Of a DNA stretch of 64,000 nt, positions 3,057 through 46,819 are shown piece by piece; within the stretch, counting starts at the first letter, position 1; the number at the start of each line of letters is the position of its first letter. The position numbers were made by a program, and so were the translations under genes. The stretch comes from Candidatus Omnitrophota bacterium (GTDB lineage Bacteria > Omnitrophota > Gorgyraeia > B26-G9), in the NCBI GenBank assembly GCA_043805415.1, contig JAZDHZ010000034.1:101478-165477 (forward strand), in the 5' to 3' direction. The notes below the pieces were generated by a model. That model did not search any database. It was not told the DNA's origin and saw nothing but the letters and a program-made list of their open reading frames with translations.

Positions 3057-3809
3057 ATGGTTATGAAAAATATTGTTATAGGCTTTATTTTGCTGATTAG
3101 TGTGTGTGTTGGCAACTGCTTTGCCCTGGATGCTCTGTCTCCGCGTTTGAGTCTGGATAAAACTACTTTTCAGGGATACTTGCTTAAACCTCAATTGGAG
3201 CTGCTAAAAACCGCTCAGGAATTTACCGCGGAATCTCCGAGTCCGGCGGATAAACTGGGTAAAGTTATTTTTCGAGTAAATCTTAATGGAGAAAAACTAA
3301 TTGTCCGCAAGCGCGTAGAAGATTACGGCGATGAGGTGGAAGTTCATCATGCCTTGACCCGGGTAGAGGCCAAGGGCAGGGAAAAATACTTAGGACAATG
3401 CTGGTACACTATTGATGATGTTCAGGCTGTGTTGCAGGAATCCTATGATATGACTCCTGCTGTGCGGATTGAAGACAAAGACAAAGGCAAAGGATATGGC
3501 AGCGTGCTTTTTGCCGCGGTTATTGAAAACGCTGGGCAAAATGGAATTAATCGCTTTCTTATTTACCAGCCGACAACTTCTTTGTACGAAAAATTCGGAT
3601 TTGAGGAAATTGGTGATTATGGCCTGTCTTATAAAAACCTCAAGCCAGATGATCCATCCGCGTTTAGCATAGCGCGGGATTTGGCTGGGCAGCGCGGCAA
3701 ATTACTTAGTGTTGAAGGCATGTTTTTATTTGCCTTAAAAACCGCGCGGCAGCCGATAGCTAAGTTGCAGTTTGAGATAGTAAATGATGTTCTCGATGGT
3801 TCAGTCTGA
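3057..3809 (+). CDS. terminal-signature family member with GNAT acetyltransferase motif
   Basis: Leader 'MVMKNIVIGFILLISVCVGNCFA', N-box 'ALSPRLSLDKTTFQGYL', tail 'LDGSV-stop'. GNAT motif A 'KGKGYGSVLFAAVIENAGQNG...LYEKFGFEEIG'. ATG 3057 preferred over TTG 3027. Confidence 0.7.
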   Translation: MVMKNIVIGFILLISVCVGNCFALDALSPRLSLDKTTFQGYLLKPQLELLKTAQEFTAESPSPADKLGKVIFRVNLNGEKLIVRKRVEDYGDEVEVHHALTRVEAKGREKYLGQCWYTIDDVQAVLQESYDMTPAVRIEDKDKGKGYGSVLFAAVIENAGQNGINRFLIYQPTTSLYEKFGFEEIGDYGLSYKNLKPDDPSAFSIARDLAGQRGKLLSVEGMFLFALKTARQPIAKLQFEIVNDVLDGSV

Positions 3810-5926: not shown

Positions 5927-6156
5927 TCGCGGAAAATATTGTTTCGCTGATTTTTAATATCTGCAAATATGGAAAAAAGATGTATTTTGATTAATAATTG
6001 TTTTATTATCCTTGCCTGAAAATACCCTGGAGTTAATAAAAACAGCAAAGAACAATAAACCCAGCCATGTTTTACTCTTATAATAAACCTAATACCTTAG
6101 TCATAACTAACTAAAAATAAAAGAGTAGTGTTTATTATAAAAAGCTCGCTAGTCCA

Positions 6157-6185
6157 TTGAAAAACATTGTTTTATGTGGTATACT
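6157..6185 (+). promoter_or_regulatory. extended -10 promoter for the 6256-15142 operon
   Basis: TTGAAA (6157-62), 17-nt spacer, TGg TATACT (6180-85). A second TATAAT lies at 6196-6201. Confidence 0.6.
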
Positions 6186-6255
6186 TTCACGGTTTTTATA
6201 ATTTTTTATAACTCTAAATATGTCGGCTTGTTAGGTTAAGGTCAAAGGAGTAAAA

Positions 6256-9200
6256 ATGTTTTTTAGAAAAAGAAATAGTTATCGCGTTAAAATCACAACT
6301 TTTATTATTTTACAGTGTTTTATAATTATAAATAGTCAAAGTATTTTTGCCCAGGAACAGCGGATTGTTTTAAGCCGCCAGCAAACAAGTACTCTTTCTC
6401 CGCACTTAAGCATCGGAATGAACTTGATTCAAGCAATTTTTTCCGAAAAAAGTCAACAGCCGATTGCCGCATCCAATCTTCCCGGAACACTGATATCATT
6501 GCGTGATACCGGAAGTATCAAAGAATTATTAAGCGGCAAAGACGTATTTTTGAATGACCTTTGGGCTAGAAAAACCTTAGGAGTACCCACGGCAATCAGT
6601 AGCCTGCGCAGTGAAGATAATAATTTTGATTTATGGGATTGGGGAAAAGGGGACATGGGTGAATCCAGCCGCCAGCATATTTTATGGTTAGCCAAGAATG
6701 GCTTTTCCCGCTGGATGCGCTTACCTAACCGGAAAACCCGGGCTTTATTCGGAGACCCCAGCCCCTATGCTTCACGCAGCGCGTTTGCCGGGGAAGATTC
6801 GGATATTGCTGTGCCGGAAGTGGAGGAATTTATTAATTCAAAACAAGCGCAGGCTTGGTATGAGCAAAATAAAAACCGGATTAAGGATTTACATAATGCG
6901 AATAGAGTAAATGGAATGGAAGTAGCGAGATTGAAAAATGAGGCTTTGTGGCTGGCAATGGAGTATTTTAAAGAAAATCATTTAAATAAAAATACTTCGC
7001 GCGGTAAAGCTTTTGATAGTTTTTTAAATGATAAAGATAATGACTGGGTAAGTGAATACGCGGAATATATGGCCATAAGCGAATATTACTGGGATACAAA
7101 AAAAGCTGTTTTTTTTGAGATAAATGAAGATATCTGGTCAAACATCGACCAAAAATTAAAAGGCCTGGTGCATGACCTGAACGTGGCCATAAGCACTGAT
7201 AAAATTAAAGATGTCGGGCGTTTATATGAAATGATTGATGATTTTTTCGCGCAGTATTACCAGAATAGTATTGTGGCAAACGAAACCGATATCTTTAGAT
7301 TGAATATTTATCAGTCATTGCTGGACAAAATAAAACAGGGAATTTTAAAAGACCTTGTGCGGGGCAATATTAAATCGCTTGTTGAGGCAGATGAACCGGA
7401 ATGCGCGAAAATACTTTTGGATGGTTATGAGCGTTCCAAACAAGCGTTTCGCTATGATATCAAAGACGCGATTGGCCAGGAATGTATGGCTGACTGGAGA
7501 AATTGGGACAATGCCGGATTGGTGGAGCGCGATCCTATTGTTTTAGCCCAATTCCGGGAAAAACTGGAAGATAAAATATTGTTTCATAAGTACGCGCAGT
7601 TTATTTTTAATGAGCAGGAAAAAAACATGAAAGAATTTGCCAACAGCAATGGCATTGCCATAGAAGGAGATATTCCTTTTTATGTGTCAACCATAAGCTG
7701 TGAAACCTGGGTGTATAAAGATAAGATATTCCGGCTTGATCCGAAAAACCGCTATCAGCAGATGGCTGACAGCGGAGCGCCGCCAGACCAGTATGACCGC
7801 GAATACGGACAAAACTGGGGCGGGACTCCTTATTATATAAATGCGGCGTTTAAGCAATTTTTCTATAAACGCACAAAACATGAATTAAAGAACGCGGATG
7901 GTATCAGGATTGATCACTTCCGGGCGCTTAATGATTTCTGGGTAATTCCTCATGGCAAGCTTGGCCGGGACGGTAAGTTTGAAGATGGGCCAAAAGATGA
8001 ATTATTGCAGCCTTTGCTTAATCTGGCATTGGGACAGTTTAAACGTTTTTTTGCCGAAGATCTGGGCTCATATCTGGAAGGAGTCTGGGATCTGATGCGG
8101 GATAATGAAGTTAAGGGCTTTCGGGTAGCGATATTCGGCCATGGTGATGATGATGACATAGTTCATCGGCAATATTCCGGGCAGATTGCTTTTTCCGGCA
8201 CGCATGATACTCAGACCTGGTTTGGCGCTTGGAATCAATGGGATAGTGTTAAACGGAGAATATTCCTGGACAGGTTTACGCATGATGATATTCCGGAGAT
8301 TTGGCAGCGCTTAACATCTGAACAGAGAAAAGGGTTTTTAAAATACCTTAATTATTTAGTAAAGCAGTTAAAAGCAGATACAGCAAACATAAACAAACAT
8401 AGCGAGTTTCAATCTGAAAGCAAAGATTTTTTCACAGAGAATAATTTTAAAACGCAGTTGAAAAAAGTCCGCGTTATTACAAGGAGTTTGGTTGATCTTG
8501 AAGAATTGCCATTTGGCGTGCAAACCGCTGTTTTCGGAATCCTGGCTTTTTCCGAAGCAGATACAGTATTTCTGCCGATGCAGGATATATTCCGGCAGGG
8601 TGAAGAGTTTCGGATAAATGTTCCGGGCAGGCCCGGAGATTGGGGCTACCGCCATCCTTATACCGGACAGGAATTGAATAAAGCAATAAATGAAGAAATA
8701 AAAAAAGCTGATGAATTAATGCGGCTGCTGGCGCAAACTTCCGGCCGGGATGTTAGCGTGCCTTTGTACAAAAAAGGCCAAGGCGTGCATATTCTGGGTG
8801 TTTCTCCGGGTGTTAATGCCAAGAAGATGTGCAAACCAGGCGAGGAGTTTATTATCTGGGCGGCAGTACAGGGTGATAAACCAGCTAAGGTTAATCTGCT
8901 GACAAATATGCCTGAGCATAATGGCGCGTATCCTAAAGAACAGGCAGTGGCCATGGAATTAGTAAAAGAATTAAAGAGCGGAACCTATCTTTATGGAGTA
9001 AGAATAAGAGCAACACAGCCAGGCAAATGGGGAGTCGCGGTTGAGGCGGATAATGTAAGAGCCGGAGAGGTTAAGGAGAATACCAGTCTGGTTGTAAGCG
9101 CTTTGGATAAAATAGCGCCTTTGGCTAAAGAACAAGAAGCTGTGCTGCGGATCGCGGCCGGGATTTCCAAGGAAAAACTGCAAAGGATTTTAAATGAGTT

Positions 9201-11184
9201 GAATCCTGATTTGGCGCAGGCCCTGCGGCAGGCATTAAAAAATTATCAGGTAGAATATGCCGGTAATGATGAGGAAAAAATCATTAATCCCAGCGGACTG
9301 GATAAAGATTTATTATATGCGAATGTGAATTTAATCCGCGAAAAATTACTTAACCTTGATTACCAACAGTTAATCAAGGAAAATTATCCTGCTTTGAATA
9401 ATAAACTTATTGCTGAGTATATGAACAGGTCGGGATGGTATTCCGCGGCAGTGCCAAATAAAATAGCGCAGACTTTGCTTAATATCGCGGTTTTACCTGG
9501 AAATCCAGAGTCTGTTATGGAAAGTCTTACCACTATTCTTGGCCACGACAACACTATTAGCGGGGAAAAGCGGGTATTATTAGATCAGGCGTTTGCCAAT
9601 GCCGCCGCGATTGCTCATGACTCGGTATTTAGAAAAGGAGATTTGTTTGTCTTAAACAAGTTTAATGATCCTGAAGCTAATCAGAAGGTGCTGTCTTTTG
9701 CCCGGTATATGGGAAATGGCAGAAAGGCGATGGTAATCAGTAATTTCAATGACTCGCGCATTAACGGAACCCTTTTGCTCAATCAGCATAATTTTGACAA
9801 AATATTTAATATCTCCAGCACTCCAGGCAGTTATTATGCTTTGATTGACAGGGTAAGCGGAGAAATATACCTGCGTGAAGGAAAAGATTTGATCGCGCAT
9901 GGTTTGTATTTTGATCTTCCGGCTCAGTCCACGCATGTTTTTATGGTTCAGAGTTTACAGGATAATACAGCCAATGTTTTGCGGTCTAAATGTAATTATT
10001 ATAATGGCAAATCTCTGCCGCTGGAAGAAATTCTTTCGCTATTAAATAATTTTGGGCTGACTTTGGATTTTCCCTGTGTGGGAAAAACAGCGCGGGCTTT
10101 TGTTCTCCAGGGTCTTTTAAACAATGTTCCGGCAAATCAATTGATCCAGGCTTTTAAAAACAATCCGGAAATCAAGATAATCGAATTTGGGTTAAACCCG
10201 GCGGAAATCGCCGCTGAGATTAGCAAATTAGCGCAAGAGTATCAAGCTGATAAGCAAGTTCAGGCTTTATGCCAGGGCCTGCGGTTTTTAAATCAAAGAG
10301 GAGCATTAAATGAAATAAATCTTGTCCTGGTTTTAAATCAGGACAAAACATCAGTTGAGGCTGTTCAGTATTTTGATCATGGTTCAAAAAGCAGGAAAAG
10401 TTATTTGTATGTTAATTTGTCGCGGCTGAATCTGGATTCAAATAATAATTCTGAAACTAAACTTTCCGCCGCGTTAATAATCGGCGCGCGGATATCACGC
10501 CAAGGGTCGATCGCGGATTATGAATTAAGCCGAACCCTTAAAGCATTTTTAGCGCTTTGGGCGCGAGACGACGCGACTTTGCCAGGGTTAATCGACAGTG
10601 AACACAAAAGGATAAAAGGCATGTTGGAATATCTTGAAACAAATCTTAATTCAGTAATAGATGAATGGAAGCTGCCGTTTCATTATAACCTGGGACATGA
10701 TACGCTGTTAAGCCACTCTTTAAGGCGCGTAGTCATGGATTTGTTTTTAAAACAAAATACTGATAATCAAGTCAGTTTAGCCACTGTGCATAATTTTGCT
10801 TATTTCTTGGCGTATTATTTGGCTGATTCCGGACAGGCAGATAAGCTTCGCGATATTTTGCTTCAAGGATTTTCTGGAAAAAAAGCATCTTTTTATGAAC
10901 AATATTTTCTTACCAGCTTTATCTCCGGAGCACTGGTTTTAAGGGACAGCAGCATAGACGCGATTTTTATTGATTTACTGGAAAATCCTTTGCCGCAAAC
11001 GGATCTTGCCTTGCGGGAAAAAATTATAAAAACAATGTGCGGTCTAAACCGTTTTGATTTAAAATTAAACAAAATCTCAGTCAAAGAGTTGGGGGCGGTT
11101 CTCCAATCCGGCAAAGCTATTGAATCACTTCCTGAGGCAACAGTCGCGATCAGGCAGTATCAGGCGATTGGACAGGCGATTTAA
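6256..11184 (+). CDS. giant terminal-signature family protein carrying a GH77 4-alpha-glucanotransferase (amylomaltase) domain
   Basis: Leader 'FIILQCFIIINSQSIFA', N-box 'TLSPHLSIGMNLIQAIF', tail 'GQAI-stop'. GH77 blocks 'GDIPFYVS', 'GAPPDQYDREYGQNWGGTPY', 'GIRIDHFRA', 'FAEDLG' and 'GTHDTQTW' lie at nt 7666-8220. AAAGGAG Shine-Dalgarno sequence. Confidence 0.9.
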   Translation: MFFRKRNSYRVKITTFIILQCFIIINSQSIFAQEQRIVLSRQQTSTLSPHLSIGMNLIQAIFSEKSQQPIAASNLPGTLISLRDTGSIKELLSGKDVFLNDLWARKTLGVPTAISSLRSEDNNFDLWDWGKGDMGESSRQHILWLAKNGFSRWMRLPNRKTRALFGDPSPYASRSAFAGEDSDIAVPEVEEFINSKQAQAWYEQNKNRIKDLHNANRVNGMEVARLKNEALWLAMEYFKENHLNKNTSRGKAFDSFLNDKDNDWVSEYAEYMAISEYYWDTKKAVFFEINEDIWSNIDQKLKGLVHDLNVAISTDKIKDVGRLYEMIDDFFAQYYQNSIVANETDIFRLNIYQSLLDKIKQGILKDLVRGNIKSLVEADEPECAKILLDGYERSKQAFRYDIKDAIGQECMADWRNWDNAGLVERDPIVLAQFREKLEDKILFHKYAQFIFNEQEKNMKEFANSNGIAIEGDIPFYVSTISCETWVYKDKIFRLDPKNRYQQMADSGAPPDQYDREYGQNWGGTPYYINAAFKQFFYKRTKHELKNADGIRIDHFRALNDFWVIPHGKLGRDGKFEDGPKDELLQPLLNLALGQFKRFFAEDLGSYLEGVWDLMRDNEVKGFRVAIFGHGDDDDIVHRQYSGQIAFSGTHDTQTWFGAWNQWDSVKRRIFLDRFTHDDIPEIWQRLTSEQRKGFLKYLNYLVKQLKADTANINKHSEFQSESKDFFTENNFKTQLKKVRVITRSLVDLEELPFGVQTAVFGILAFSEADTVFLPMQDIFRQGEEFRINVPGRPGDWGYRHPYTGQELNKAINEEIKKADELMRLLAQTSGRDVSVPLYKKGQGVHILGVSPGVNAKKMCKPGEEFIIWAAVQGDKPAKVNLLTNMPEHNGAYPKEQAVAMELVKELKSGTYLYGVRIRATQPGKWGVAVEADNVRAGEVKENTSLVVSALDKIAPLAKEQEAVLRIAAGISKEKLQRILNELNPDLAQALRQALKNYQVEYAGNDEEKIINPSGLDKDLLYANVNLIREKLLNLDYQQLIKENYPALNNKLIAEYMNRSGWYSAAVPNKIAQTLLNIAVLPGNPESVMESLTTILGHDNTISGEKRVLLDQAFANAAAIAHDSVFRKGDLFVLNKFNDPEANQKVLSFARYMGNGRKAMVISNFNDSRINGTLLLNQHNFDKIFNISSTPGSYYALIDRVSGEIYLREGKDLIAHGLYFDLPAQSTHVFMVQSLQDNTANVLRSKCNYYNGKSLPLEEILSLLNNFGLTLDFPCVGKTARAFVLQGLLNNVPANQLIQAFKNNPEIKIIEFGLNPAEIAAEISKLAQEYQADKQVQALCQGLRFLNQRGALNEINLVLVLNQDKTSVEAVQYFDHGSKSRKSYLYVNLSRLNLDSNNNSETKLSAALIIGARISRQGSIADYELSRTLKAFLALWARDDATLPGLIDSEHKRIKGMLEYLETNLNSVIDEWKLPFHYNLGHDTLLSHSLRRVVMDLFLKQNTDNQVSLATVHNFAYFLAYYLADSGQADKLRDILLQGFSGKKASFYEQYFLTSFISGALVLRDSSIDAIFIDLLENPLPQTDLALREKIIKTMCGLNRFDLKLNKISVKELGAVLQSGKAIESLPEATVAIRQYQAIGQAI

Positions 11185-11185
11185 T

Positions 11186-14100
11186 ATGTCAGGAATTTTT
11201 AAAACTAAAATTTTAAATAGATTTCTCTGTCTGGTTATTTTGCAGATATTTCTTGTTTCCAATTTTTCCTGGGCCGCGGATGATTTGCGCGCGAATGATT
11301 TAGTTTATTCCAGCGCAACGCTTTCTCCTTCGCTTCAAATCAGCGCTGATGCGCTAAAACAATATTTTGCCCAATCCTTTGATTTAAAAACCGCGGCAAA
11401 TATAGATCCGGTTATAAAAGATATTTGCTTAGAGCTGTATAAGGCCAAGGATAAAACCACAAAAATAGAAGTTCTGGCCCTTGAGCAAGGCTATAGAGTA
11501 AAGATCAGGACTCAGAGCAATACGCCGCTTGTTTTACATTGGGGGTTTAATAATTGGCAAAAGCCTTTTAAGGAAATCTGGCCCCAGGCAGAGAATATCC
11601 GCACTTATTTTGATGAGCAGACCAAAGCAATGCGGACCATAGTCGAGGCTTCAGCTGAGGGAGATTATGTTTTTAATATTGATATCCCCTGGGAATTAGT
11701 TTCAGGAATAAACAATATTGATTTCACCTTCTTTTGCCCAGAAACCAAAGAATATAAGAAAGCAATTGAAAATAAGGATTATGTTGTGCCGGTTTCTAAT
11801 GTCTTGAACCTGGCCTTGGCGCGCTTGGCTGAAAATGCCGGGGCAGATGATCCTGAAAAAAAGCACGATCTGCTTAATTTGATAAACAAAAGGCTGGCTG
11901 CGGCCAAAGATTCAGCGGAAATAGATGAAAACAATATTCCTTTGTTTTATGACGCGCATGAAAATATTATTACCCAGATTGTGAAAAACAAAGCAGGAAT
12001 CAGAATTGATTTCTGGGTTGTAAGTAATGAGCCGCTGGTTTTACATTGGGGAATAAATGATTGGCAGTTGCCGCCAAAAAGCATTTGGCCGGACCGGACA
12101 TTATATAAAACCCGGGCTTATGAAAAAAAAGCAGTGCAAACTCAGATGCATTTGGCTTCTAAAGACGGTTTGTACCAGACCTCGATTTACATCCCTAACC
12201 AGAATTTAAAAGAAGTTAAAAACATCAAGTACAATGTACATTATCCAAATAATGGGTATTGGGATAATAATAATGAAGAGGATTATAGTTTATCGCTGCA
12301 AGCCCAGGATCTTATAGCCGCTTTGCTGCCTTACGCGACAGGCAGATTCGCTGCCCACATAAACGCCAAACAAGCTCGCGGCTTGTTAAAGAACATGGCG
12401 TTTTTCTACGCTGAGAATATGAATTACACTGATTTGTTAAAGCTTTTTCAGGGGATGGAAGGCATTGCCCCTGGGGATGATCTTGAAAAAAAAGATGTTT
12501 TGGGATTAATCCTTATTGCCAAATTAATGAACGAAGGCGCGGTTTGGGATAGTGACAAAGCTAAGATTATTATCAGTAAACAAAAGATCAGCGCCGCGAT
12601 AGCGGAGTTGATTGATAAACTTGACCCCTTAAGTGTGCAGTGGGCATTATATATATTCGGACTGCTTGACCCTTCCTGGGTCTCAATCCTTACGCATCAG
12701 CTTGATTATAAGCAGATATACCAGGATGTGCAAAACAGCAAGATCAAAGACCTGCCGAAATTTATCCAAGGGATAATCAACAGTTATGATGATTTGGAAG
12801 GAGCGCCGCAGGTTCTTTCCGCTGAGAGTATTGATGAAACCTGCCTGATCATAAAATTGAAATTCAATGATCAGATCATCAGTACAAAATGGGGCTATCC
12901 GACAAAACAGCAAAAGTATTATTATCAAAATGGGATTTTTGAACTAAGAGATTTCGGGGGAAATGAATTTTCGCCGGTAGGCCGTAAGCTTTCGCGTTAT
13001 GTGGATAAAGAAGTGATAAAAACCCAGATCTCCAGGCTGCGTGGCAAAGGCAAAAAGGCGATTGTTGACGGAATTTCCTGGCAGTCTCCGGAAGCGCTTA
13101 ATTCGGATAATTATATGTATTATCATCATAGTCTGCTGGAAAAAGACGCGGATGTCAGGAATTTATTGCTTTCCCGTGGTTCTTCCACGATCTTAGAACT
13201 TCCGGACGGGAAAAAAGCCTGGGTATTTCATCGGCCTGATTCATCAGATCAGCTTTCGCCTAATCTTAAATTCGGAACAAAGGCAGCGGAATACTGGAGA
13301 AATTATTGGCTGGAGTATTATAAATATTTTATCAATGAATTTGACGTGGATGGATTCAGGGTGGATTTACCCGGAGAGTTGAATCATCATGGAGATTATT
13401 CGGTATTTAAGAGTGTTTGTTTTGATATAGTGCGGTACGCGGCGGCAAAAGGCAAAAAAATATATTTTATTTTAGAAACATATCATGGGTACGCGAATAT
13501 CTGGGGCTGGGATGAGTTTTCCGCGTTAAATCATGATCCGCAGATAGCGCAATACGGCTATAAACCTTTCCGCTGTTATTATAAGCCGGTAATGACCAGT
13601 ATTTACCGCGGCAGCGCGTTTGATCTAAGAGCTGCTTTTGAACGCATAGCCGGCAGTGTTCAGGAATTGGTTATTTCAATTACTAATTTTGACGAGAAAA
13701 AAGCCGAGGATATTATTCCTGAAAAACAAAGGCTTAAGCGTTATATGGAGCTTTTGTATAATTTTGCCCGCGCGGGATTTGATGTAATGATTTATTTACG
13801 GGATTTAGGTCTGGGCGATATTTTGCCGATGTGCGGCGGAGATCGGGTTCTCTGGGGCGGAAAGCTGAGGGTTGTGGCGCATAAGCCGGCTACTCCGCGT
13901 CAGTTTCGGCAGAGATTGGAGCAAAGCACAGGCGATTTGCTTGAACAATCTCCTTTATATCAGGCGTTTAAAAAATCGCCGCAAAGCCCCTTATCGCGGC
14001 TGTTCTTCCGCGGCAATAAGTTAGTTTTTTATCAGCCGGGAAAAACTCCGGAAGTGTTTGATCTGGATAAGATGGCTAAGCCTGCTCCACCGGTAAAAGT

Positions 14101-15142
14101 TATGGACAGTGAGGAGGATATAAATATTTGGCTGCAGCAGCAGGTTTATTCATTAACAAATAATGAGCCGCAAACCCAAGCCTTAAGAGAAATTGAAAAT
14201 ACTTTAAAACGATTTAAGCATAGTGCAAGTGCAATGGCGGGAAAAGCTGTTTTGGCTCTGGTCTGTTCTGAGACTAAGAATTTCGCGGTTTGGGATCAGG
14301 CAAAAGGCCAAACTCAATGCCTGCGCATGCCGGTAAATAAAGTATTGGCCATAAAAAATGACCATGCTTTTGTTGTGGATATTAAACAAGCTGGCAAAAG
14401 CGAATCCCGCAGAATCCCGGCGCTGCAAATCAAGCAAAGCGGCAAATATTTGGCAATGGTTTTTGGCTTGGCTCCGGGTAAATACAGGTTTAATTTTTTG
14501 TGGCAGGAAAAACATGAAAACCAGGGCTGGGAAGAAGGCAATGGCTATGAGCTTGAAGTCAGTTCTCCGAAGACCGGGCAACCAGAGCTGGCGGTCTATA
14601 TCCCGCGTTTATCCGCTGAATATTTAAGGGATTGGGATGAAATGTTTTATCAGGCAAAAGATGCTGGCCGCAATCTGCTGACCGGAGATATGCTTACAAA
14701 GGGAATGCTTGAAAATATAGAATCCTCGATTGATTTTACCCTGCGTTATGAGTATGGCCGGGAGATTTTAGAACAAATTAAAGACAAAAAGAAAAAGCAG
14801 GTTTTCAATATTTTATATAATCAAATTTCGCAAAACCCGCGAGGCCGATACAGTTTACTGCATCATCACCATGAAAAAGATTTTTTTAAATTAGCGGAAA
14901 CTGTGCTTGAGAGTATCCCGGGTTTAGCAAGACCAGAGGCAGCCCCAATATGGCAATATTTGGACGCGCTCAAACAAGCGGATAATCCTGACCAAGGAGA
15001 ACAAAGCCAAATAGCCGTAAATATAAAACTGCTTGGTTTTATGTCTGGTTTGTTCGCGCAGATCGAAGCCCTGTCCGCGGCTAAACCCCTTGAGCTTTGG
15101 CTTAATATTGAAGCGGAGTTTTTGATTGGACAGGCAATATAG
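11186..15142 (+). CDS. terminal-signature family protein with GH13-like alpha-amylase-family core and two starch-binding-like modules
   Basis: The ATG lies 1 nt after the upstream TAA. Leader 'FLCLVILQIFLVSNFSWA', N-box 'TLSPSLQISADALKQYF', tail 'GQAI-stop'. 'VDGFRVDLPGEL', 'YFILETYHG' and 'ITNFDE' resemble GH13 regions II-IV. Tandem 'PLVLHWG.N.WQ.P' modules. Confidence 0.85.
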   Translation: MSGIFKTKILNRFLCLVILQIFLVSNFSWAADDLRANDLVYSSATLSPSLQISADALKQYFAQSFDLKTAANIDPVIKDICLELYKAKDKTTKIEVLALEQGYRVKIRTQSNTPLVLHWGFNNWQKPFKEIWPQAENIRTYFDEQTKAMRTIVEASAEGDYVFNIDIPWELVSGINNIDFTFFCPETKEYKKAIENKDYVVPVSNVLNLALARLAENAGADDPEKKHDLLNLINKRLAAAKDSAEIDENNIPLFYDAHENIITQIVKNKAGIRIDFWVVSNEPLVLHWGINDWQLPPKSIWPDRTLYKTRAYEKKAVQTQMHLASKDGLYQTSIYIPNQNLKEVKNIKYNVHYPNNGYWDNNNEEDYSLSLQAQDLIAALLPYATGRFAAHINAKQARGLLKNMAFFYAENMNYTDLLKLFQGMEGIAPGDDLEKKDVLGLILIAKLMNEGAVWDSDKAKIIISKQKISAAIAELIDKLDPLSVQWALYIFGLLDPSWVSILTHQLDYKQIYQDVQNSKIKDLPKFIQGIINSYDDLEGAPQVLSAESIDETCLIIKLKFNDQIISTKWGYPTKQQKYYYQNGIFELRDFGGNEFSPVGRKLSRYVDKEVIKTQISRLRGKGKKAIVDGISWQSPEALNSDNYMYYHHSLLEKDADVRNLLLSRGSSTILELPDGKKAWVFHRPDSSDQLSPNLKFGTKAAEYWRNYWLEYYKYFINEFDVDGFRVDLPGELNHHGDYSVFKSVCFDIVRYAAAKGKKIYFILETYHGYANIWGWDEFSALNHDPQIAQYGYKPFRCYYKPVMTSIYRGSAFDLRAAFERIAGSVQELVISITNFDEKKAEDIIPEKQRLKRYMELLYNFARAGFDVMIYLRDLGLGDILPMCGGDRVLWGGKLRVVAHKPATPRQFRQRLEQSTGDLLEQSPLYQAFKKSPQSPLSRLFFRGNKLVFYQPGKTPEVFDLDKMAKPAPPVKVMDSEEDINIWLQQQVYSLTNNEPQTQALREIENTLKRFKHSASAMAGKAVLALVCSETKNFAVWDQAKGQTQCLRMPVNKVLAIKNDHAFVVDIKQAGKSESRRIPALQIKQSGKYLAMVFGLAPGKYRFNFLWQEKHENQGWEEGNGYELEVSSPKTGQPELAVYIPRLSAEYLRDWDEMFYQAKDAGRNLLTGDMLTKGMLENIESSIDFTLRYEYGREILEQIKDKKKKQVFNILYNQISQNPRGRYSLLHHHHEKDFFKLAETVLESIPGLARPEAAPIWQYLDALKQADNPDQGEQSQIAVNIKLLGFMSGLFAQIEALSAAKPLELWLNIEAEFLIGQAI
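11460..12295 (+). repeat. two tandem ~110-aa starch-binding-like modules (intragenic duplication)
   Basis: 'NTPLVLHWGFNNWQKPFKEIWP' (about nt 11520) and 'NEPLVLHWGINDWQLPPKSIWP' (about nt 12029), each followed by 'A(M/V)(R/Q)T...' and a Y/W-rich beta region. Confidence 0.6.
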
Positions 15143-17668: not shown

Positions 17669-20600
17669 ATGTATTTTAAAAAGCTCGAACTCTTTGGATT
17701 TAAATCTTTCGTTGATAAAACAACTCTTATTTTTGAACCAGGCGTAACCGCGATTGTTGGCCCCAATGGTACAGGAAAAAGTAATATTTCTGACGCGATT
17801 AAATGGGTATTGGGAGAACAAAGTGCCAAGTCTATGCGTGGGGCAAAGATGGAAGATGTTATTTTTAATGGCACAGAAACCCGCCCTCCGGTAAATATGT
17901 CAGAAGTTTCGCTGACGCTTTCTAATGAAGAAAGAGTTTTGGCGATTGATTATGATGAAGTAACTGTAACCAGAAGGCTTTATCGCTCAGGAGAAAGTGA
18001 GTATCTTCTTAATAAAACCCCGGTTAGGTTAAGAGATATAAATGAACTATTAATGGGCACTGGCATAGGCACGGAATCGTATTCTTTGCTCGAGCAGGGC
18101 CGGATTGACGCGATTATTAGTTCCAAGCCGGAAGAACGCAGAGTGGTGTTTGAAGAAGCCAGCGGCATTACCAGATATAAGAAACAAAAAAATGAGGCAA
18201 TGCGCAAGCTGCAGGCAACAGAAGAAAACCTTTTACGGGTTAATGATATAATTGTAGAGGTTAATCGTCAGTTAAATTCCATAGCGCGTCAGGTAAGTAA
18301 AGCGCGCCGCTTTCAGGAAAATTTTGATGAACTTAAAACATTAGATACGCAGTATACATACCTTCAATATAAACAGCTTAAGGAAAAAAATGATTTACTT
18401 GCCAGTGAAGAGACTGCTTTTCATGCTGAGCAGGCGGGATTAGAAAAAGAGCTTGCTGTTTTTTCTGAAGAGTTTGACGCCTTAAAAGTAACCCTTTCTG
18501 AAGTGGAACATAATTACAGTCACTTGAACAATCAATTTGTCAGGACTACTTCGCAGATTGAGCAGAATGTTCACGCTGTGTCCATTAATAATGAACGCAT
18601 CCAGGAATTCAGCCAAAGAGTGCGGGATTATAACCGCGATCTGGAAAACTCCCAAAAGAAAATCAAAGAACTGCAGGAGCAGATAAACCAACTGCAAATC
18701 CGGATTTCCGCTTTTTCCGACGAGAAAAGCGCGAAAGAACTTAATTTAAATTTACGCCAGACAACAATCGCGGAAATTGAAAACCAAATAAAACTCGCGC
18801 AAAAATCCGGAGAAGAAAACCGGATCGTGGCGGTAAAATTACTCAGTGAACACGCGCAGATTAAAAATGAACTGGCCAAGCTTTCGGCGAATATCAGCAA
18901 TGCTAACGCGCGCTTATTGCGGCTTAATCAGGAAAAAGCGAAAACTAATCAGGAACGCGAGAAGATTGACGCGGAATTAAAAAGCAAAATAGCGGAAGTT
19001 GAAAATTTAAGAGGTAAGGTTAATAAAGAAGAAGGCGACGCTCAGAATCTTAAAAATAATTATGAAGAGCTTAATACTCAGATAAAAGAGCTGGAAGTAA
19101 ATATCCAAGACAGCAAGCAAGCTTTAGTCGGCTGTAAATCCCAGCTGGAAATGCTGGAAAGATTGAGCAAGGAATACGAATGGTTTTCCAGCTCAGTGAA
19201 ATCATTTATGCTCCAAAAAGAAAACTATCCCGAAGCTTTTGCCGGAGTCCATGATGTACTGGTAAATCTTATGGAGGTAAAGCCGGGATATGAAGTTTGC
19301 GTGGAAACCGCGCTAGCCGAATACTTGCAGGCCGTTGTTGTTGATAGCCGACAAGTGGCTTTAAGGCTGAGAGAATTTCTTAATCAGCATAATATCGGCA
19401 GAATTCGGTTTATTACTCTGGATTCAATTCCGCAAATAGCTAATCAGCAGTCTCAGATTGAAAATACAAAGAATTTTTTAGAAGTAATTACCTGCGATGA
19501 TAAATACGCGAAAGTTTTAGCGTTTCTGGTTAAGAACACTTTTATTTTACAAGAAAATATTTTTGACAATCCGTCAAATCCTTTGACTAATATCAAAGAT
19601 ACGCTGAGTGCTGAGCCAGATGCTTCTGGCTTGCTTGAAGCTGAGCTTTTGTTTTCTTTTAAAACAAACGCGGCCAATAGCGTTAAAATAGTCGGCGATT
19701 TTAATCGATGGAATGCTTCTTTTGACAGTGATCTGGAACGCAAAGACACGGAGCTTTGGCAAAAGGTTCTAAAGCTCGCGCCAGGACGCTATACTTATAA
19801 GCTGGTGGTTGATGGCCAATGGATCATTGACCCGAACAATCCGCTTAAAGAAATAGATGTAAACGGACATGAAAACTCAGTTATCGAAGTGCTGGCAAAA
19901 TCCCAGGATGCTTTGGTTGCTGAGGCTGATAAGCCGGCGGCATTTGATTTTAATTTTCTGGAAACGCTGGTGAGTATGAGCGGCGAGCTGCATTCAACCG
20001 CGGGATTAATCAGCCGGCCGGTTGCTGACCAGACAACAGGCCTGTTTTATCAAAAAGCAAAAATAAGGCAGCTTAAGCAGGAAAGTGTCGGCCTGGAACA
20101 AGCCGTAGTTAAATATAAACAAGAAATCGACACTAAAATCCAGCAGCTTAAGTTTGTGGAAACAGAATTTACTCAATTAAATGATGCTTTGCACGAAGAA
20201 AAGATTAGTCTGGCGAATCGGGACTCGGAAAAATCCAGTATTGAAATAAACCGGAAAAAACTTGTGGATGAGCTTTTAGTCATTGATCTGGAAATTGATG
20301 AAACAACTCTTGATGTTCAGGAGTTTGAAGAAAAAGAAGCGGCTAAGAGAGCTAGGCTGAGCATTGTGGATCAGGAAATAGTCGGCAATGAACAGACAAT
20401 GGCAAGTAATCATCAATTGATCGGGATAAAAAACAAGGAGCGGGAAGAGCTTTTAGTTATTATCGCGGAAATGAAAACAGAATTTTCTTTGCTCAATGAA
20501 CAGGAAGAATCTTTAAATCAGAGTTTTTCAATGCTGTATAATACGCTCAAAGAATTAACCCTGAACTCGGAAGAATTTGTCCGGTATAAGGATGAGAGTA

Positions 20601-21625
20601 TAAAGCGGATCGAGGCGCTGACGATTCAGGTAAGTGAACTGAATAAATCCACGCTTGTCCTTGAGCAGGAAAAAGAAGAAATCGGCATGTCTTTAGAAGA
20701 ATTTAAAGAAAAACGCGGTCAATTATTAAGTAAATTTGAAGATATCCAGAATAAAATAAAAGAAAAAGAAAACCGATTAAATTATACCAAGAATCGGATT
20801 CGCGATATTGATGTTAAAAAAGTCGAGATGAATTTTAAAACCGAGTCATTGGTAAATTCAGCGAGGCAGGCTTATAAAATCGAACTGGAAACCCTGGAAC
20901 TTGAATTGCCGGAAGATATAGACTGGCAGGCGCGGAAAGAACAGATCGATGGTTTAAAAAATAAGATTGACCGGATTGGGGCAGTTAATCTGGCGGCAGT
21001 AGAAGAAGAGGAAGAATTAAGACAGCGCGCTGACTTTCTTAATAGTCAAAGCGAGGATTTGTTCGCGGCTAAGCAGACATTAATGCAGGCAATCCAAAAA
21101 ATCAACCGCACAACTAAAGCGCTTTTTCTCGAGACTTTTGAGAAATCAAAAATCGCTTTTAAAGAGTATTTCAAGCTTTTATTCAGCGGCGGCGACGCGC
21201 AGCTTCTGCTTACCGAGGGAAAAGATGTTTTAGAATGCGGGGTGGAAATCGTGGTGCGGCCTCCAGGCAAAAGACTGCAAAGCATAACCCTGCTTTCCGG
21301 AGGCGAGAAAACGCTTACGGCAATTGCCTTATTGTTCGCGATTTTTAAGATTAAGCCAACACCGTTTTGCGTATTAGATGAAATGGATGCCCCCTTAGAC
21401 GAATCGAATATTGATCGGTTCACCCGGGTTTTACAGGAATTTTTGAAAAGCTCACAATTCATAATTATTACCCATAATAAAAAGACTATTTCCATGGCGG
21501 ATGTTATGTATGGGGTAACAATGGAGCAGCCGGGTATTTCTCGGCTGGTGAGTGTGAAATTCAGCGAATTTAAAGACTCGGATAAATTAAAACAAGAGCT
21601 TATTCCTGAAGAAGCTATAATCTAG
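17669..21625 (+). CDS. smc: chromosome partition protein Smc, with an inserted CBM48-like module in the hinge
   Basis: N-terminal 'LELFGFKSF...IVGPNGTGKSNISDAIKWVLGEQS', signature 'LSGGEKTLTAIALLFAI', Walker B 'FCVLDEMDAPLD', and long coiled coils. Confidence 0.95.
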   Translation: MYFKKLELFGFKSFVDKTTLIFEPGVTAIVGPNGTGKSNISDAIKWVLGEQSAKSMRGAKMEDVIFNGTETRPPVNMSEVSLTLSNEERVLAIDYDEVTVTRRLYRSGESEYLLNKTPVRLRDINELLMGTGIGTESYSLLEQGRIDAIISSKPEERRVVFEEASGITRYKKQKNEAMRKLQATEENLLRVNDIIVEVNRQLNSIARQVSKARRFQENFDELKTLDTQYTYLQYKQLKEKNDLLASEETAFHAEQAGLEKELAVFSEEFDALKVTLSEVEHNYSHLNNQFVRTTSQIEQNVHAVSINNERIQEFSQRVRDYNRDLENSQKKIKELQEQINQLQIRISAFSDEKSAKELNLNLRQTTIAEIENQIKLAQKSGEENRIVAVKLLSEHAQIKNELAKLSANISNANARLLRLNQEKAKTNQEREKIDAELKSKIAEVENLRGKVNKEEGDAQNLKNNYEELNTQIKELEVNIQDSKQALVGCKSQLEMLERLSKEYEWFSSSVKSFMLQKENYPEAFAGVHDVLVNLMEVKPGYEVCVETALAEYLQAVVVDSRQVALRLREFLNQHNIGRIRFITLDSIPQIANQQSQIENTKNFLEVITCDDKYAKVLAFLVKNTFILQENIFDNPSNPLTNIKDTLSAEPDASGLLEAELLFSFKTNAANSVKIVGDFNRWNASFDSDLERKDTELWQKVLKLAPGRYTYKLVVDGQWIIDPNNPLKEIDVNGHENSVIEVLAKSQDALVAEADKPAAFDFNFLETLVSMSGELHSTAGLISRPVADQTTGLFYQKAKIRQLKQESVGLEQAVVKYKQEIDTKIQQLKFVETEFTQLNDALHEEKISLANRDSEKSSIEINRKKLVDELLVIDLEIDETTLDVQEFEEKEAAKRARLSIVDQEIVGNEQTMASNHQLIGIKNKEREELLVIIAEMKTEFSLLNEQEESLNQSFSMLYNTLKELTLNSEEFVRYKDESIKRIEALTIQVSELNKSTLVLEQEKEEIGMSLEEFKEKRGQLLSKFEDIQNKIKEKENRLNYTKNRIRDIDVKKVEMNFKTESLVNSARQAYKIELETLELELPEDIDWQARKEQIDGLKNKIDRIGAVNLAAVEEEEELRQRADFLNSQSEDLFAAKQTLMQAIQKINRTTKALFLETFEKSKIAFKEYFKLLFSGGDAQLLLTEGKDVLECGVEIVVRPPGKRLQSITLLSGGEKTLTAIALLFAIFKIKPTPFCVLDEMDAPLDESNIDRFTRVLQEFLKSSQFIIITHNKKTISMADVMYGVTMEQPGISRLVSVKFSEFKDSDKLKQELIPEEAII
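19646..19891 (+). other. AMPK-beta/CBM48-type glycogen-binding module inserted in the SMC hinge
   Basis: 'FSFKTNAANSVKIVGDFNRWN...ELWQKVLKLAPGRYTYKLVVDGQWIIDPNNP' follows the CBM48 pattern (V.l.GsFn.W...W...L.pG.Y.YKf.VDG.W..DP). Confidence 0.7.
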
Positions 21626-25853: not shown

Positions 25854-25939
25854 GCGGGGATGGTGGAATGGCAGACACGCTAGCTTGAGGGGCTAGTGGG
25901 AGCAATCTCGTGAGGGTTCAAATCCCTCTCTCCGCACCA
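25854..25939 (+). tRNA. tRNA-Leu (anticodon GAG), type II with long variable arm, CCA encoded
   Basis: Manual fold: acceptor GCGGGGA/UCUCCGC, D stem GUG/CAC, anticodon stem CUAGC/GCUAG, loop UUGAGGG, 15-nt variable arm, T arm GAGGG-UUCAAAU-CCCUC, ACCA. Confidence 0.9.
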
Positions 25940-26244: not shown

Positions 26245-27012
26245 ATGAAAAATCCGCTGCATAACAAAATAATCTGTATGGTTTGCTTATTTATTGCAAT
26301 CAGCAATACTGCTTTACCGGTTTTTGCTTTGAATAATCCGGAATCAAGCCGAAAATATTGCCTTTCCCCGTTTTTACGTATAATCAATTCTGATTTTCAA
26401 TCCAGATTTGAGAGTCTAAACTCTGACTTATTAGACAATAATTTAAACATGCCAGGGGATCTGAAAAGCCGCGCGCTGGTAGTTGGCAGGACAAGCATAA
26501 TTTTTAATAACAAAGAAATGAGCTTTTTTGAATTAACAAAAAGCCTAAACCTTTTACTTGCCAATGATCGATTTACTTACTTTGCCAGAATTGAAAAAGA
26601 TATGGTTAAATATGCGGCATTAAGCACTGTAGAGCAGCTTTTACTTGCTTTAAAGCAGTCAGAATTATCAGAATATGCTGAGCAAATTGATATTATTCTG
26701 GCAATTTTGCATCTTTCCGCTGAAGACGCGGCAATTATCCTTAGCGGCATTGAACCTTTGCAGCAAAAATCAATTACTAATCTTACTGATAAGGCCTGGA
26801 CGAATAAATTCAGAATGAAACGATTCAGCTTAACCATGGGCTATGAGCTTGATATTGCTAAAGCTTGGTATGTTAAAACATTGGAAACAGAGGCTGAGGA
26901 AAGACAGTGGTGGCATGCTATGTGCCGCAATTCAATGCCTATGAATATGTTTAAGGGTTTGAATGCTGATTTGCAGAAAAAAAATCATGGCTTAATTGAT
27001 GCTTCAATTTAA
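26245..27012 (+). CDS. terminal-signature family protein, function unknown
   Basis: Leader 'IICMVCLFIAISNTALPVFA', N-box 'CLSPFLRIINSDFQSRF', tail 'DASI-stop'. Confidence 0.7.
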   Translation: MKNPLHNKIICMVCLFIAISNTALPVFALNNPESSRKYCLSPFLRIINSDFQSRFESLNSDLLDNNLNMPGDLKSRALVVGRTSIIFNNKEMSFFELTKSLNLLLANDRFTYFARIEKDMVKYAALSTVEQLLLALKQSELSEYAEQIDIILAILHLSAEDAAIILSGIEPLQQKSITNLTDKAWTNKFRMKRFSLTMGYELDIAKAWYVKTLETEAEERQWWHAMCRNSMPMNMFKGLNADLQKKNHGLIDASI

Positions 27013-32200: not shown

Positions 32201-32560
32201 GATATATTCGCGATAGATAAGACTGATATGTCTCAGGACGCGAAGCTGAAAATAGCGGAAATGATCAACGGATTAAAAGCCGGGATAACTGAGTCAATGG
32301 GTGTGAGTGAAGATAAAATTACCGGTCGGGAAATCACGCGGTGGTTTAAAACTCCTTCTTCGCGGAATAAGCAGCTGAGAGATTTTTATTTTCAATATGG
32401 GGCAATAACAGCAGAACCTATATCCATCCTGGGTTTTGCTGGGTTTTTAATGAATATTCCGGCATTGCGTTCGGCAGCTGATGCTGAGCGAAAAGCGGCG
32501 CCTTTAAGCGGTATTATAAACCGCAAGCCGCTCGAACAATTAGTCGGACAGTCAATATGA
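29258..32560 (+). CDS. terminal-signature family protein with PARP-like ADP-ribosyltransferase motif and Pol-beta-type nucleotidyltransferase motif
   Basis: Leader 'MNYKQKSKFRLIFRVIASVLLQAFLFTNFAWC', N-box 'TISPAIQVTEASIQTLF', tail 'GQSI-stop'. Internal 'YHIS..LNSILLSGGRI...SGQGVYFFEM' and 'DTGSSNRGLTVENPDFDFLI'. Confidence 0.85.
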   Translation: MNYKQKSKFRLIFRVIASVLLQAFLFTNFAWCGADQFIQGNTVCAPAISSTTISPAIQVTEASIQTLFVQSAAFQMGKRAEFKGLDSLKQAEVENALGDKFSLSLNLKGKLNTASVIQNIEKRTDIKADYKKILNAMILEFGKLDVKFYSYETLVEDLFGFASAGNKMIAIHSSVFSNPIAQTHEIGEFLAQAGMLNFSLGQDDQLLISLNGSLIGRIKLSEDALAIAKKDPSSNHYLLRAFQREVFQDKDRALTAGIKNKQGDLSSAMKIFLKTINAETGNKVEASMSLSKLNDPMFEALFKDIEFNRFSENDAAKLKIAILLQNNIAIEPIAEPLLQECGMLNKESADLYETIFPAAGTPGFSPKKLFAKENVNPDNLHLIFELAKRYSPIKAFSDKLDRIYRELALYTLPVSPGARYHISLLKDLNSILLSGGRIKESKHSLSGQGVYFFEMGNSGLVNAQTRLAEFFPFISSSPHDLADADYVVKAFRQKIARDAKDNARIFPVVIQVAEDIPAEAAMGWAFREDYKKAGKLIRDELNAQEYEFLINLNYLYLSENQAVKNHLLAKNIIREENGIIRLVDASRAIQDENKKNTGWARMRFADLRYEVINLSYTKLDSDIQKLSAKMAQLLQNLLADKMSVSSVVDTGSSNRGLTVENPDFDFLIKINSPEDFTAIVKLLLDEKILENFLKEHKAAFEAIYGDKSVSIVTEQPHAVGKGNLYLFPFKFVAANRIVGGVDFNFSKLSAGKAETLSYHETARQQLQAILDKVPEAEQKQLSRYLAGEIKTLKKLIINQGLYKDKDTKRNRFIGVAVEQMIYNLSDYLSMPSNISTAEIKSIFSIKTALYLISRMESERLNGLSFSLYQRANGSGFSNQSVKYDLRDNEKSVIPKVGTAFAGFKEFSEAENAGVKNKIKGLITDFISRPGNKVKIIEFFARYNNEVDAAIALGQAKPFSNWEFFERWEFTHRFFTLHKTEIDIFAIDKTDMSQDAKLKIAEMINGLKAGITESMGVSEDKITGREITRWFKTPSSRNKQLRDFYFQYGAITAEPISILGFAGFLMNIPALRSAADAERKAAPLSGIINRKPLEQLVGQSI
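30509..30640 (+). other. PARP/H-Y-E-clade ADP-ribosyltransferase-like signature
   Basis: 'ARYHISLLKDLNSILLSGGRIKESKHSLSGQGVYFFEMGNS' parallels the PARP1 sequence '[20 protein letters not shown]...GKGIYFADMVSKS'. This is pattern recall, not a search. Confidence 0.4.
31190..31265 (+). other. Pol-beta superfamily nucleotidyltransferase signature (GS-x9-12-DxD)
   Basis: 'VVDTGSSNRGLTVENPDFDFLIK'. Confidence 0.45.
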
Positions 32561-32602
32561 ATATTCTCTAGGGCAATATGATTGGGTAAATGGAACAAGA
32601 TA

Positions 32603-45791: not shown

Positions 45792-45798
45792 AAAACTT

Positions 45799-46215: not shown

Positions 46216-46238
46216 CTTGTTTGTCAGCAGTGAAGTAA

Positions 46239-46267
46239 TTGCAAACATATCGCTACTGTGGTATAAT
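46239..46267 (+). promoter_or_regulatory. extended -10 promoter for smpB (predicts a leaderless or near-leaderless mRNA)
   Basis: TTGCAA (46239-44), 17-nt spacer, TGg TATAAT (46262-67). ATG at 46276 with no Shine-Dalgarno sequence. Confidence 0.55.
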
Positions 46268-46275
46268 CCTCGTCT

Positions 46276-46731: not shown

Positions 46732-46765
46732 ATGGCTAATGGTCAATGGTCGATAGTCAATAGTT
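46731..46765. repeat. heptamer tandem repeat (AATGGTC)x5, degenerate
   Basis: aatggct aatggtc aatggtc gatagtc aatagtt, directly after the smpB stop. Confidence 0.8.
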
Positions 46766-46813: not shown

Positions 46814-46819
46814 AGATTG

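Follow-up and report, generated by a model that had tools for sequence, protein, structure and literature searches.

A putative two-gene unit of large, probably exported alpha-glucan enzymes in Omnitrophota, with CBM45-type modules and a divergent alpha-amylase-clan domain

According to a recent paper, carbohydrate-binding modules of family 45 (CBM45) are found in no more than two enzyme classes, namely GWD1 and AMY3 of plants. The motif described as the signature of carbohydrate binding in CBM45 is HWG/A, with the binding tryptophan (PMC12458248), and a 2025 study of Arabidopsis AMY3 gives the spacing of the tryptophans as 192 +/- 5 residues in AMY3 and 326 +/- 22 residues in GWD1 (PMC12458248). 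Here we analyze a stretch of 64,000 nucleotides (nt), hereafter the window, from a 169.5-kb contig (JAZDHZ010000034.1) of a Candidatus Omnitrophota metagenome-assembled genome (MAG; assembly GCA_043805415.1), in which a gene for a very large protein of glycoside hydrolase family 77 (GH77), denoted gene 1, is directly followed by gene 2, whose product combines two CBM45-type modules with a divergent domain of the alpha-amylase clan (Table 1). We think it probable, if far from assured, that the pair is a conserved two-gene unit of extracytoplasmic, Sec-exported alpha-1,4-glucan enzymes of Omnitrophota. The catalytic identity of gene 1 is already annotated at NCBI, where the protein is named MAG 4-alpha-glucanotransferase; what is new is the identification of gene 2 (hypothetical protein V1747_07790 at NCBI) as a member of a tiny alpha-amylase-clan family that has no curated model and whose subsite -1 is altered, the presence of bacterial CBM45-type modules in an AMY3-like layout, and the link of the pair to a bipartite terminal signature.

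The first-pass annotation of the window, made from the sequence alone, had delimited the two open reading frames (ORFs) correctly: the coordinates are exact, and the protein lengths of 1642 and 1318 amino acids (aa) are identical to those recorded at NCBI. The stop codon of gene 1 (TAA, 11182-84) and the start codon of gene 2 (ATG, 11186) are separated by a single T, that is, by a gap of 1 nt, and a scan of this junction found no terminator-like site between the genes; an alternative TTG start of gene 2 at 11120 would extend its product to 1340 aa. In another Omnitrophota MAG (GCA_022013175.1, locus L001), the orthologs of gene 1 (62% identity) and gene 2 (44% identity) are neighbors too, with their order preserved and 47 nt between them, and the genes flanking them are unrelated to those flanking the pair in the window, so that the pair itself is the conserved unit. 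Judging by the spacing and the conserved adjacency, the two genes probably form one operon and are co-transcribed. The annotation had placed the promoter of this transcript at 6157-6185; a sigma-70-like site is indeed present there, within a 330-nt AT-rich gap upstream of gene 1, but because promoter-like sites are no more common in the region than in shuffled sequence (33 compared to 26.8 +/- 4.6 expected), its role is plausible only.

The two proteins had also been presented as members of one family, and in this respect the annotation has to be corrected: there is no significant similarity beyond the signal region (best BLASTP E about 0.1), paralogy is rejected, and all that the two proteins have in common is the N-terminal signal region and a C-terminal ...GQAI. 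Horizontal acquisition of the pair is likewise unsupported, the GC content of 0.39-0.42 being like that of the rest of the window. The 44%-identical ortholog of gene 2 was reached only through synteny and an exhaustive HMMER scan; a word-index homolog search with gene 2 returned the query itself only, and the same search with the C-terminal 813 residues of gene 1 returned nothing. A search for related loci with a 6-sequence alignment yielded one true relative, from the same organism as L001, and 14 other loci that were rejected as ordinary Bacteroidota or other GH13 genes matching in regions II-III only.

By domain identity, gene 1 is predicted to encode a GH77 4-alpha-glucanotransferase with intact catalytic residues. 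The Pfam GH77 profile (PF02446) matches with E=4.2e-77 and 260.4 bits (gathering score, 25). The match is split in two: of the 465 positions in the profile, 3-138 are covered by aa 114-279, and 139-460 by aa 411-801. Such a match, covering nearly the whole profile, indicates an insert of about 130 residues between the two pieces and a second one near aa 680-760. The GH77 blocks that the first-pass annotation located at nt 7666-8220 are all there, with GDIPFY at nt 7666, RIDHF at 7906, AEDLG at 8053 and GTHD at 8197. The blocks that align to the Aquifex amylomaltase 1tz7 are WGKGDMG, SPYASRS, GDIPFY, GAPPD..GQNWG, IRIDHFRAL, FAEDLG, GTHD and INVPGRPGDWGYR; in particular, IRIDHFRAL, FAEDLG and SGTHD of gene 1 face LRLDHFRGF, IAEDLG and TSTHD of 1tz7. 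Given that all blocks align, the catalytic Asp of region II, Glu of region III and Asp of region IV are present in gene 1, at D553 (RIDHF), E601 (AEDLG) and D651 (THD); following published GH77 work, we take these three motifs to be the holders of the catalytic residues. The GH77 domain is followed by an extension of about 840 residues. The only relative of its last 813 residues is the ortholog of gene 1 (P0003; homologs are denoted here by P and a number). Sub-threshold Pfam hints in this part, GlgE_dom_N_S (E=0.06) and Alpha-amylase_C (E=0.008-0.017), were not built on, and an AlphaFold2 model of aa 830-1642, computed from a two-sequence alignment, is unusable (predicted local distance difference test score, pLDDT, 37.5).

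The N-terminal part of gene 2 contains the two tandem LHWG modules (motifs at aa 117 and 286) pointed out in the first-pass annotation. They are real repeats: aligned to each other they score 142, compared to a mean of 28 and standard deviation of 5 for shuffled sequences (z=22). Scanned separately, both exceed the gathering score of 27 of Pfam PF23166, the Ig-like N-terminal domain of alpha-glucan water dikinase 1 (GWD1), and the whole protein matches this profile with E=1.2e-16; judging by its name and the literature, PF23166 corresponds to the CAZy family CBM45. The tryptophans of the two HWG motifs are 169 aa apart, and both copies are N-terminal to the catalytic domain. The scores above the gathering threshold together with this spacing assign the modules to the CBM45 type in an AMY3-like layout, and aa 87-193 and 266-370 are thus putative starch- or alpha-glucan-binding modules. 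Of the types proposed at first, CBM25, CBM45 and CBM53, it is CBM45 that stands; CBM53, like CBM21 and GH32N, was matched by gene 2 segments below threshold only and was not built on. A search of PDB sequences with the CBM region of gene 2 gave no match.

The central module of gene 2 was recognized through its family. The exhaustive HMMER scan of 1.84 billion representative proteins identified 29 relatives at E<1e-3, with no ordinary GH13 enzyme among them; most are very large multidomain proteins, and those with a recorded source come from four phyla (Omnitrophota, Endomicrobiales, Firestonebacteria and Gracilibacteria). The conserved blocks in an alignment of 21 segments (A1) are SRLVHGLDY, IGYPTK, GNxFSP, VDFxxWxSP[ED], DQLxPD, DVDGFRVDL, YFxLExY, N[FY]D[ED], GG and HK. 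The strings on which the first-pass annotation had relied, DGFRVD (aa 722), ILETYHG (aa 762) and NFDE (aa 834), fall within regions that can be read as region I IVDGISWQSPE, region II DVDGFRVD (R725, D727), region III ILETY (E764) and region IV TNFDE (D836). R725, D727, E764 and D836 are invariant in all 18-19 homologs that span them, as is H899; with the alignment of gene 1 to 1tz7, the catalytic Asp and Glu residues are thereby accounted for in both proteins. All 60 listed matches of the family profile to PDB sequences, a list reaching E about 1, are GH13 enzymes, the only one under E<0.001 being the Thermotoga maritima 4-alpha-glucanotransferase 1lwh (E=5e-4). Regions I-IV are in register with the PDB GH13 chains; the Asp and Glu of the family fall on D186 and E216 of 1lwh, and its fD on the NHD of 1lwh. 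In an AlphaFold2 model (pLDDT 86.2, predicted template modeling score 0.87), the central module is an alpha-amylase-type (beta/alpha)8 barrel, and the best Foldseek match, GlgE of Mycobacterium tuberculosis (E=2e-10), agrees with the alpha-amylase clan. The label GH13-like is correct for the fold, clan and catalytic machinery of this module.

Relatives of gene 2 tie the family to alpha-glucan metabolism. In P0016 (NCBI MFH1245304.1, Candidatus Omnitrophota, 3517 aa, partial), a catalytic module of the gene 2 type is fused to GH77 and a CBM45-type module, and the same protein contains a dual-specificity phosphatase (DSP) domain (DSPc, E=6e-14; VHCRAGIGRTGS); GH77-like sequence occurs in it a second time, and a peptidase S41 domain is present as well. 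It is this fusion of the gene 2-type module with GH77, CBM45-type and phosphatase domains that links the family to alpha-glucans. The ortholog of gene 2, P0008 (L001:14890-20283), is a protein of 1797 aa that is 44% identical over aa 1-1126 and in which an additional GH77-like domain (about 450 residues, with the motifs GGRLD, AEQLG and SHD) separates the beta-rich domain from the helical module at the C-terminus; this GH77-like domain is cleanly missing, in frame, from gene 2 in the window (14560-14615). It appears that gene 2 lost this domain in frame or that the lineage of P0008 gained it. The helical module is also found in P0017, P0022, P0026, P0028, P0029 and P0033; in P0008, P0022, P0028, P0029 and P0033, which include several unrelated giant proteins, it directly follows GH77-like domains.

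Both proteins begin with a basic n-region, a hydrophobic core of 13-15 residues that contains Gln, and an AxA-type site with small residues at -1 and -3, and in each a hydrophobic window (KD19 > 1.5) occurs once, at the N-terminus only. We consider it likely that both pass through Sec, whereas their final location is a further step of interpretation. The first-pass claim of export is thus backed by the n-h-c organization of the signal, the AxA-type site and the single hydrophobic segment, and is complicated by the other proteins in the window that carry the same signal (see below). The NCBI start of P0003, the ortholog of gene 1 (L001:9700-10001 / L002:1543-6807), at MPLSLRD..., is probably too late; an in-frame upstream ATG (MFLKKRNRYCLII...) restores a signal peptide like that in the window along with an LSPYLNI motif.

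The signal peptides are one part of a bipartite signature. An [LI][SA]PxLxI motif is located 5-22 residues past the signal peptide site, and the proteins end in [AS][IV]. Of the 40 ORFs in the window that span 150 codons or more from stop to stop, exactly 9 have such an end, and the same nine carry the N-terminal motif, with 0 singletons (hypergeometric p about 4e-9): 3057-3809, 6256-11184, 11186-15142, 26245-27012, 29258-32560, 32603-41542, 41723-43429, 48991-51357 and 53147-55489. Their signals often read ...LxQxFL..NF[AS]WA, and their C-termini are GQAI, EQAI, QEAI, GQSI, EHSI, LNSI, DASI and DGSV. No Pfam or NCBIfam model covers these termini. The signature recurs in the orthologs and in P0008, P0017 and P0025, of which three only P0008 has been traced to an Omnitrophota MAG; it may be a phylum-specific sorting signal. 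Many signal-less relatives from several phyla (P0011, P0013, P0014, P0018, P0027, P0030 and P0033) also end in a polar residue followed by [AS]-[AVIL], with the endings QAA, EAL, DSV, EAA, HSA, QNA and ISA; this hints that the C-terminal feature may be broader than the Omnitrophota signature.

In the scheme that we favor, the Sec-type signal peptides would send both large enzymes across the cytoplasmic membrane, where the two CBM45-type modules, presumed to be of low affinity, would tether gene 2 to alpha-1,4-glucan (starch or glycogen). The (beta/alpha)8 barrel of gene 2, with Asp as the nucleophile, Glu as the acid/base and Asp as the stabilizer, would cut or transfer glucan chains, and the GH77 enzyme of gene 1 would convert the released malto-oligosaccharides by disproportionation, yielding longer chains alongside glucose or short sugars. 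Such an arrangement would be the bacterial counterpart, outside the cytoplasm, of the plant AMY3/DPE1 pair. The domain-level claims that underlie this scheme are solid, and it is from them that we infer the location, the substrate and the cooperation of the two proteins.

Several findings weigh against this reading, beginning with those on the chemistry of gene 2. Neither the whole protein (at E<=1) nor its segments (at E<=5) matched Pfam PF00128, aa 380-1318 went unrecognized by every Pfam and NCBIfam model, and the NCBIfam matches, to pullulanase and TreZ over 28-75 residues, are sub-threshold only (E 0.007-0.02). Nearly all active GH13 enzymes use two histidines at subsite -1, one in region I (DxVxNH) and one in region IV (NHD). 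In the family of gene 2, region I reads VD[FGL]xxWxSP, where Trp is invariant and is followed by a variable residue instead of His, and the His of region IV is replaced by Phe (12 homologs) or Tyr (6), with His in 1. On account of these replacements the module is filed as GH13-like, or clan GH-H-like, and not as GH13, and its substrate or chemistry may be different from those of ordinary amylases; by the refuting condition of the first-pass annotation, no match above threshold, the GH13 call would formally have failed. The missing canonical histidines, as well as the failure of every curated model to recognize the domain, would also suit a non-catalytic glucan-binding or scaffold protein with an inactive GH13-like barrel. 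Inactive GH13 relatives, such as the rBAT and 4F2hc heavy chains, have been reported without these catalytic residues. Gene 2, unlike those heavy chains, keeps them, and because these four (Arg, Asp, Glu, Asp) do not vary among relatives of no more than 19-50% identity from as many as four phyla, we give an inactive barrel hardly any credence.

On the side of gene 1, the score against the NCBIfam malQ equivalog TIGR00217 (185.5 bits) is below the cut-off of 205.65, and all PRK14508 subfamily models are far under their cut-offs; hence, GH77 membership holds at the domain level only, and this is an unusual protein rather than a standard MalQ. The conservation of the pair is thin as well, because locus L002 represents the same sequence and organism as L001, which leaves one independent syntenic locus. 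The pair could conceivably be builders: gene 2, as a GlgE-like or other transglycosylase, would act with GH77, itself a transferase, to assemble or remodel alpha-glucan outside the cytoplasm, for instance that of a capsule or matrix. The best profile match of gene 2, 1lwh, is a GH13 glucanotransferase, and domains of starch synthase and phosphoglucomutase are found in giant, signal peptide-bearing proteins of Omnitrophota (bioRxiv 10.64898/2026.06.07.730766). A donor (maltose-1-phosphate, ADP-glucose) is, however, not expected outside the cytoplasm, and CBM45 is known from degradative contexts, so that we regard synthesis as quite improbable.

The remaining points against the favored reading concern location. 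The homologs of the gene 2 module in Gracilibacteria, Firestonebacteria and Endomicrobiales have no signal peptide and look cytoplasmic, which lends some weight to the view that the pair remodels the cell's own storage glycogen, at or inside the cell, with the N- and C-terminal signature serving in membrane anchoring or internal targeting rather than secretion. Omnitrophota MAGs generally encode glycogen synthesis (PMC8542988), and the CBM48/AMPK1_CBM insert in the SMC protein of the window suggests an intracellular glucan; the termini that the two enzymes display are, moreover, the same as those of GGDEF, cNMP-binding, SAM-methyltransferase and GNAT proteins. Yet by the positive-inside rule most of either protein lies outside the cytoplasm, the c-regions resemble signal peptidase I sites (SIFA-Q, FSWA-A, FAWA-G and the like, the hyphen marking the site), and there is no second hydrophobic segment that would return the chain. 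We consider this alternative unlikely but worth keeping in view.

The other carriers of the signature in the window pose a problem of their own for the extracytoplasmic reading: they include GGDEF plus cNMP-binding, SAM-methyltransferase and GNAT domains, which normally need cytoplasmic cofactors, and their presence behind the signature makes simple periplasmic or extracellular residence uncomfortable for the whole class. A 2026 preprint on complete Omnitrophota genomes describes the same paradox, giant proteins with metabolic domains behind signal peptides (bioRxiv 10.64898/2026.06.07.730766). One of the carriers in the window, a protein of 2986 aa at 32582-41542, has UPF0489, cyclic-nucleotide-binding and GGDEF-like domains behind its signal peptide. 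Cytoplasm-type enzymes among the cargo would fit action inside another cell, and the signature, both halves of which coincide in 9 of the 40 large ORFs and recur in orthologs and other relatives, might mark the cargo of an Omnitrophota-specific secretion route; the two enzymes would then be glycogen-mobilizing effectors, delivered onto or into prey or host to convert its glycogen into importable sugars. Omnitrophota have been proposed to be predators or parasites, with secretion and pilus loci beside giant genes (bioRxiv 10.1101/2023.11.21.568195), and there is a precedent in the GlgX, GlgP and MalQ (GH77) proteins of Chlamydia trachomatis, which carry type 3 secretion signals (PMC4829429). 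Against delivery, no secretion apparatus is tied to the signature, a Sec signal alone reaches the periplasm only, nothing indicates host association of this organism, and the CBM45-type modules suit free starch or glycogen equally well; we rate it as improbable. A bolder combination, to which we attach a low probability, is that the gene 2 module represents a new clan GH-H family (with Trp and Phe for the two His at subsite -1) within a plant-like starch-mobilizing kit, comprising CBM45, GH77 and, in relatives, a laforin/SEX4-like phosphatase, and that this kit leaves the cell by way of a hitherto undescribed bipartite signature (a signal peptide with LSPxLxI ... [AS][IV]-COOH) to work on the glycogen of prey or host.

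The pair is of interest in several respects. Bacterial CBM45-type modules in an AMY3-like layout beside GH77, together with the phosphatase fusion in a relative, bear on the origin of the plant starch-degradation toolkit; the catalytic domain of gene 2 may have a new specificity and deserves classification by CAZy. The N- and C-terminal signature, common to seven neighboring proteins, is a possible sorting signal of a phylum suspected of predation, and two enzymes with a readily assayed predicted activity would be handy reporters for its study.

Table 1. Coordinates (positions in the window) of the features of the gene pair; a hyphen within a signal peptide sequence marks the predicted cleavage site
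Feature	Coordinates	Strand	Description
Terminator-like hairpin	5929-5947		Just after the gene upstream of gene 1, before the promoter candidate
Sigma-70-like promoter candidate	6157..6185	+	TTGAAA, 17-nt spacer, TATACT, upstream TG (extended -10); 10/12 consensus positions; consensus match only
Shine-Dalgarno AAGGAG for gene 1	6243..6248	+	8 nt before ATG; read from sequence
Gene 1	6256..11184	+	ATG start; 1642 aa; GH77 4-alpha-glucanotransferase with long C-terminal extension
Gene 1 predicted Sec signal peptide	6256..6351	+	aa 1-32; MFFRKRNSYRVK / ITTFIILQCFIIINS / QSIFA-QEQ; site judged by eye
Gene 1 LSPHLSI motif	6394..6414	+	aa 47-53; N-terminal half of the bipartite signature
GH77 catalytic domain	6595..8658	+	aa 114-801; inserts at about aa 280-410 and about aa 680-760
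Gene 1 C-terminal 813 residues	8743..11181	+	Predicted beta-rich start, then mostly helical; no family
Gene 1 C-terminal ...GQAI-COOH	11170..11181	+	C-terminal half of the signature; ortholog ends ...EQAI
Gene 2	11186..15142	+	ATG start; 1318 aa; two CBM45-type modules, divergent GH13-fold domain, beta domain, helical C-terminal module
Gene 2 predicted Sec signal peptide	11186..11275	+	aa 1-30; MSGIFKTKILNR / FLCLVILQIFLVS / NFSWA-ADD
Gene 2 LSPSLQI motif	11321..11341	+	aa 46-52
Putative CBM45-type module 1	11444..11764	+	aa 87-193; LHWG at aa 117; PF23166 31.1 bits
Putative CBM45-type module 2	11981..12295	+	aa 266-370; LHWG at aa 286; PF23166 43.3 bits
Divergent GH13-fold (clan GH-H-like) module	12503..14080	+	aa about 440-965
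Beta-rich domain	14261..14560	+	aa about 1026-1125 ('FLWQEKHENQGWEEG'); common to P0008, P0025, P0034; no Pfam family
Helical C-terminal module	14615..15085	+	aa about 1144-1300 (LLHHHHEKDFFKLAE ... NIKLLGFMSG); no Pfam family
Gene 2 C-terminal ...GQAI-COOH	15128..15139	+	Ortholog ends ...EQAV

Elsewhere in the window, the SMC protein (17669-21625, 1318 aa) contains an AMPK1_CBM/CBM48 module at aa 667-744 (E=3.4e-13), just past the hinge (insert at about 19667-19900); a glycogen-binding module in SMC is odd and suggests that the nucleoid and intracellular glucan are connected in some way. Further genes encode a GH26-like protein with a signal peptide (1926-2903, E=4e-10), a GH116 protein without a signal (43626-45791, E=9e-80), and a clan-A 'Glyco_hydro_cc'/GH10/GH39-like protein with a signal peptide (51738-52823). 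The carbohydrate context noted in the first-pass annotation is therefore present, but the GH26-like, GH116 and clan-A proteins are beta-glycan enzymes, so that the alpha-glucan theme is limited to the operon and the SMC insert. A tRNA-Leu(GAG) gene is located at 25854-25939, and a tmRNA gene (46820-47252; Rfam 176 bits), for which ARAGORN predicts the unusual tag peptide ALLERIGSGIAHPTFTGFVPAAVLL, lies inside a 3.2-kb stretch (45791-48991) that has no ORF of at least 200 aa. The possibility that the C-terminal motif of the signature carriers is a tmRNA tag was rejected, the tag being unrelated.

Among known systems, the plastidial AMY3 and DPE1 of plants share with the pair an N-terminal pair of CBM45-type HWG modules, a downstream alpha-amylase-clan barrel and a GH77 partner, which in this case is the product of the adjoining gene; the tryptophan spacing is 192 +/- 5 in AMY3 compared to 169 in gene 2. 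Unlike AMY3, gene 2 is bacterial and has a Sec signal instead of a transit peptide; its catalytic domain has no PF00128 match and both subsite -1 histidines are replaced, and a beta domain and a helical C-terminal module are additional to the AMY3 layout. With 1642 aa, the GH77 partner is also unlike DPE1 (about 570 aa). The combination of CBM-type and DSP domains in P0016 resembles the glucan phosphatases SEX4 of plants and laforin of animals.

Within the GH13 family, the closest structures are the Lactobacillus plantarum alpha-amylase 3dhu, GlgE (3zss/4u33) and T. maritima 1lwh, with which gene 2 has regions I-IV in register and, in common, the Arg-x-Asp nucleophile, the Glu acid/base and the Asp stabilizer. 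In contrast to GH13, the gene 2 module has an identity of 10-14%, is under every curated sequence threshold, has VDFxxWxSP[ED] in region I rather than DxVxNH and N[FY]D[ED] in region IV rather than NHD, and possesses an N-terminal extension with SRLVHGLDY, IGYPTK and GNxFSP; the family consists of 29 representatives. Gene 1 resembles the GH77 amylomaltases (MalQ) of Thermus, Aquifex and E. coli in having all conserved blocks, with the whole profile aligned, and differs from them in being three times the usual size, with two domain inserts, the 840-residue C-terminal extension and a signal peptide. The GlgX, GlgP and MalQ proteins of C. trachomatis, a lineage related through the PVC group (PMC4829429), are similar in that a GH77 enzyme and a partner glucan enzyme leave the cytoplasm for outside glycogen (PMC4829429), which for the Omnitrophota pair is deduced from sequence; unlike in Chlamydia, the signal is Sec-like within an N- and C-terminal signature rather than a type 3 secretion signal, and the proteins are much larger and multi-modular, in an organism with no known host.

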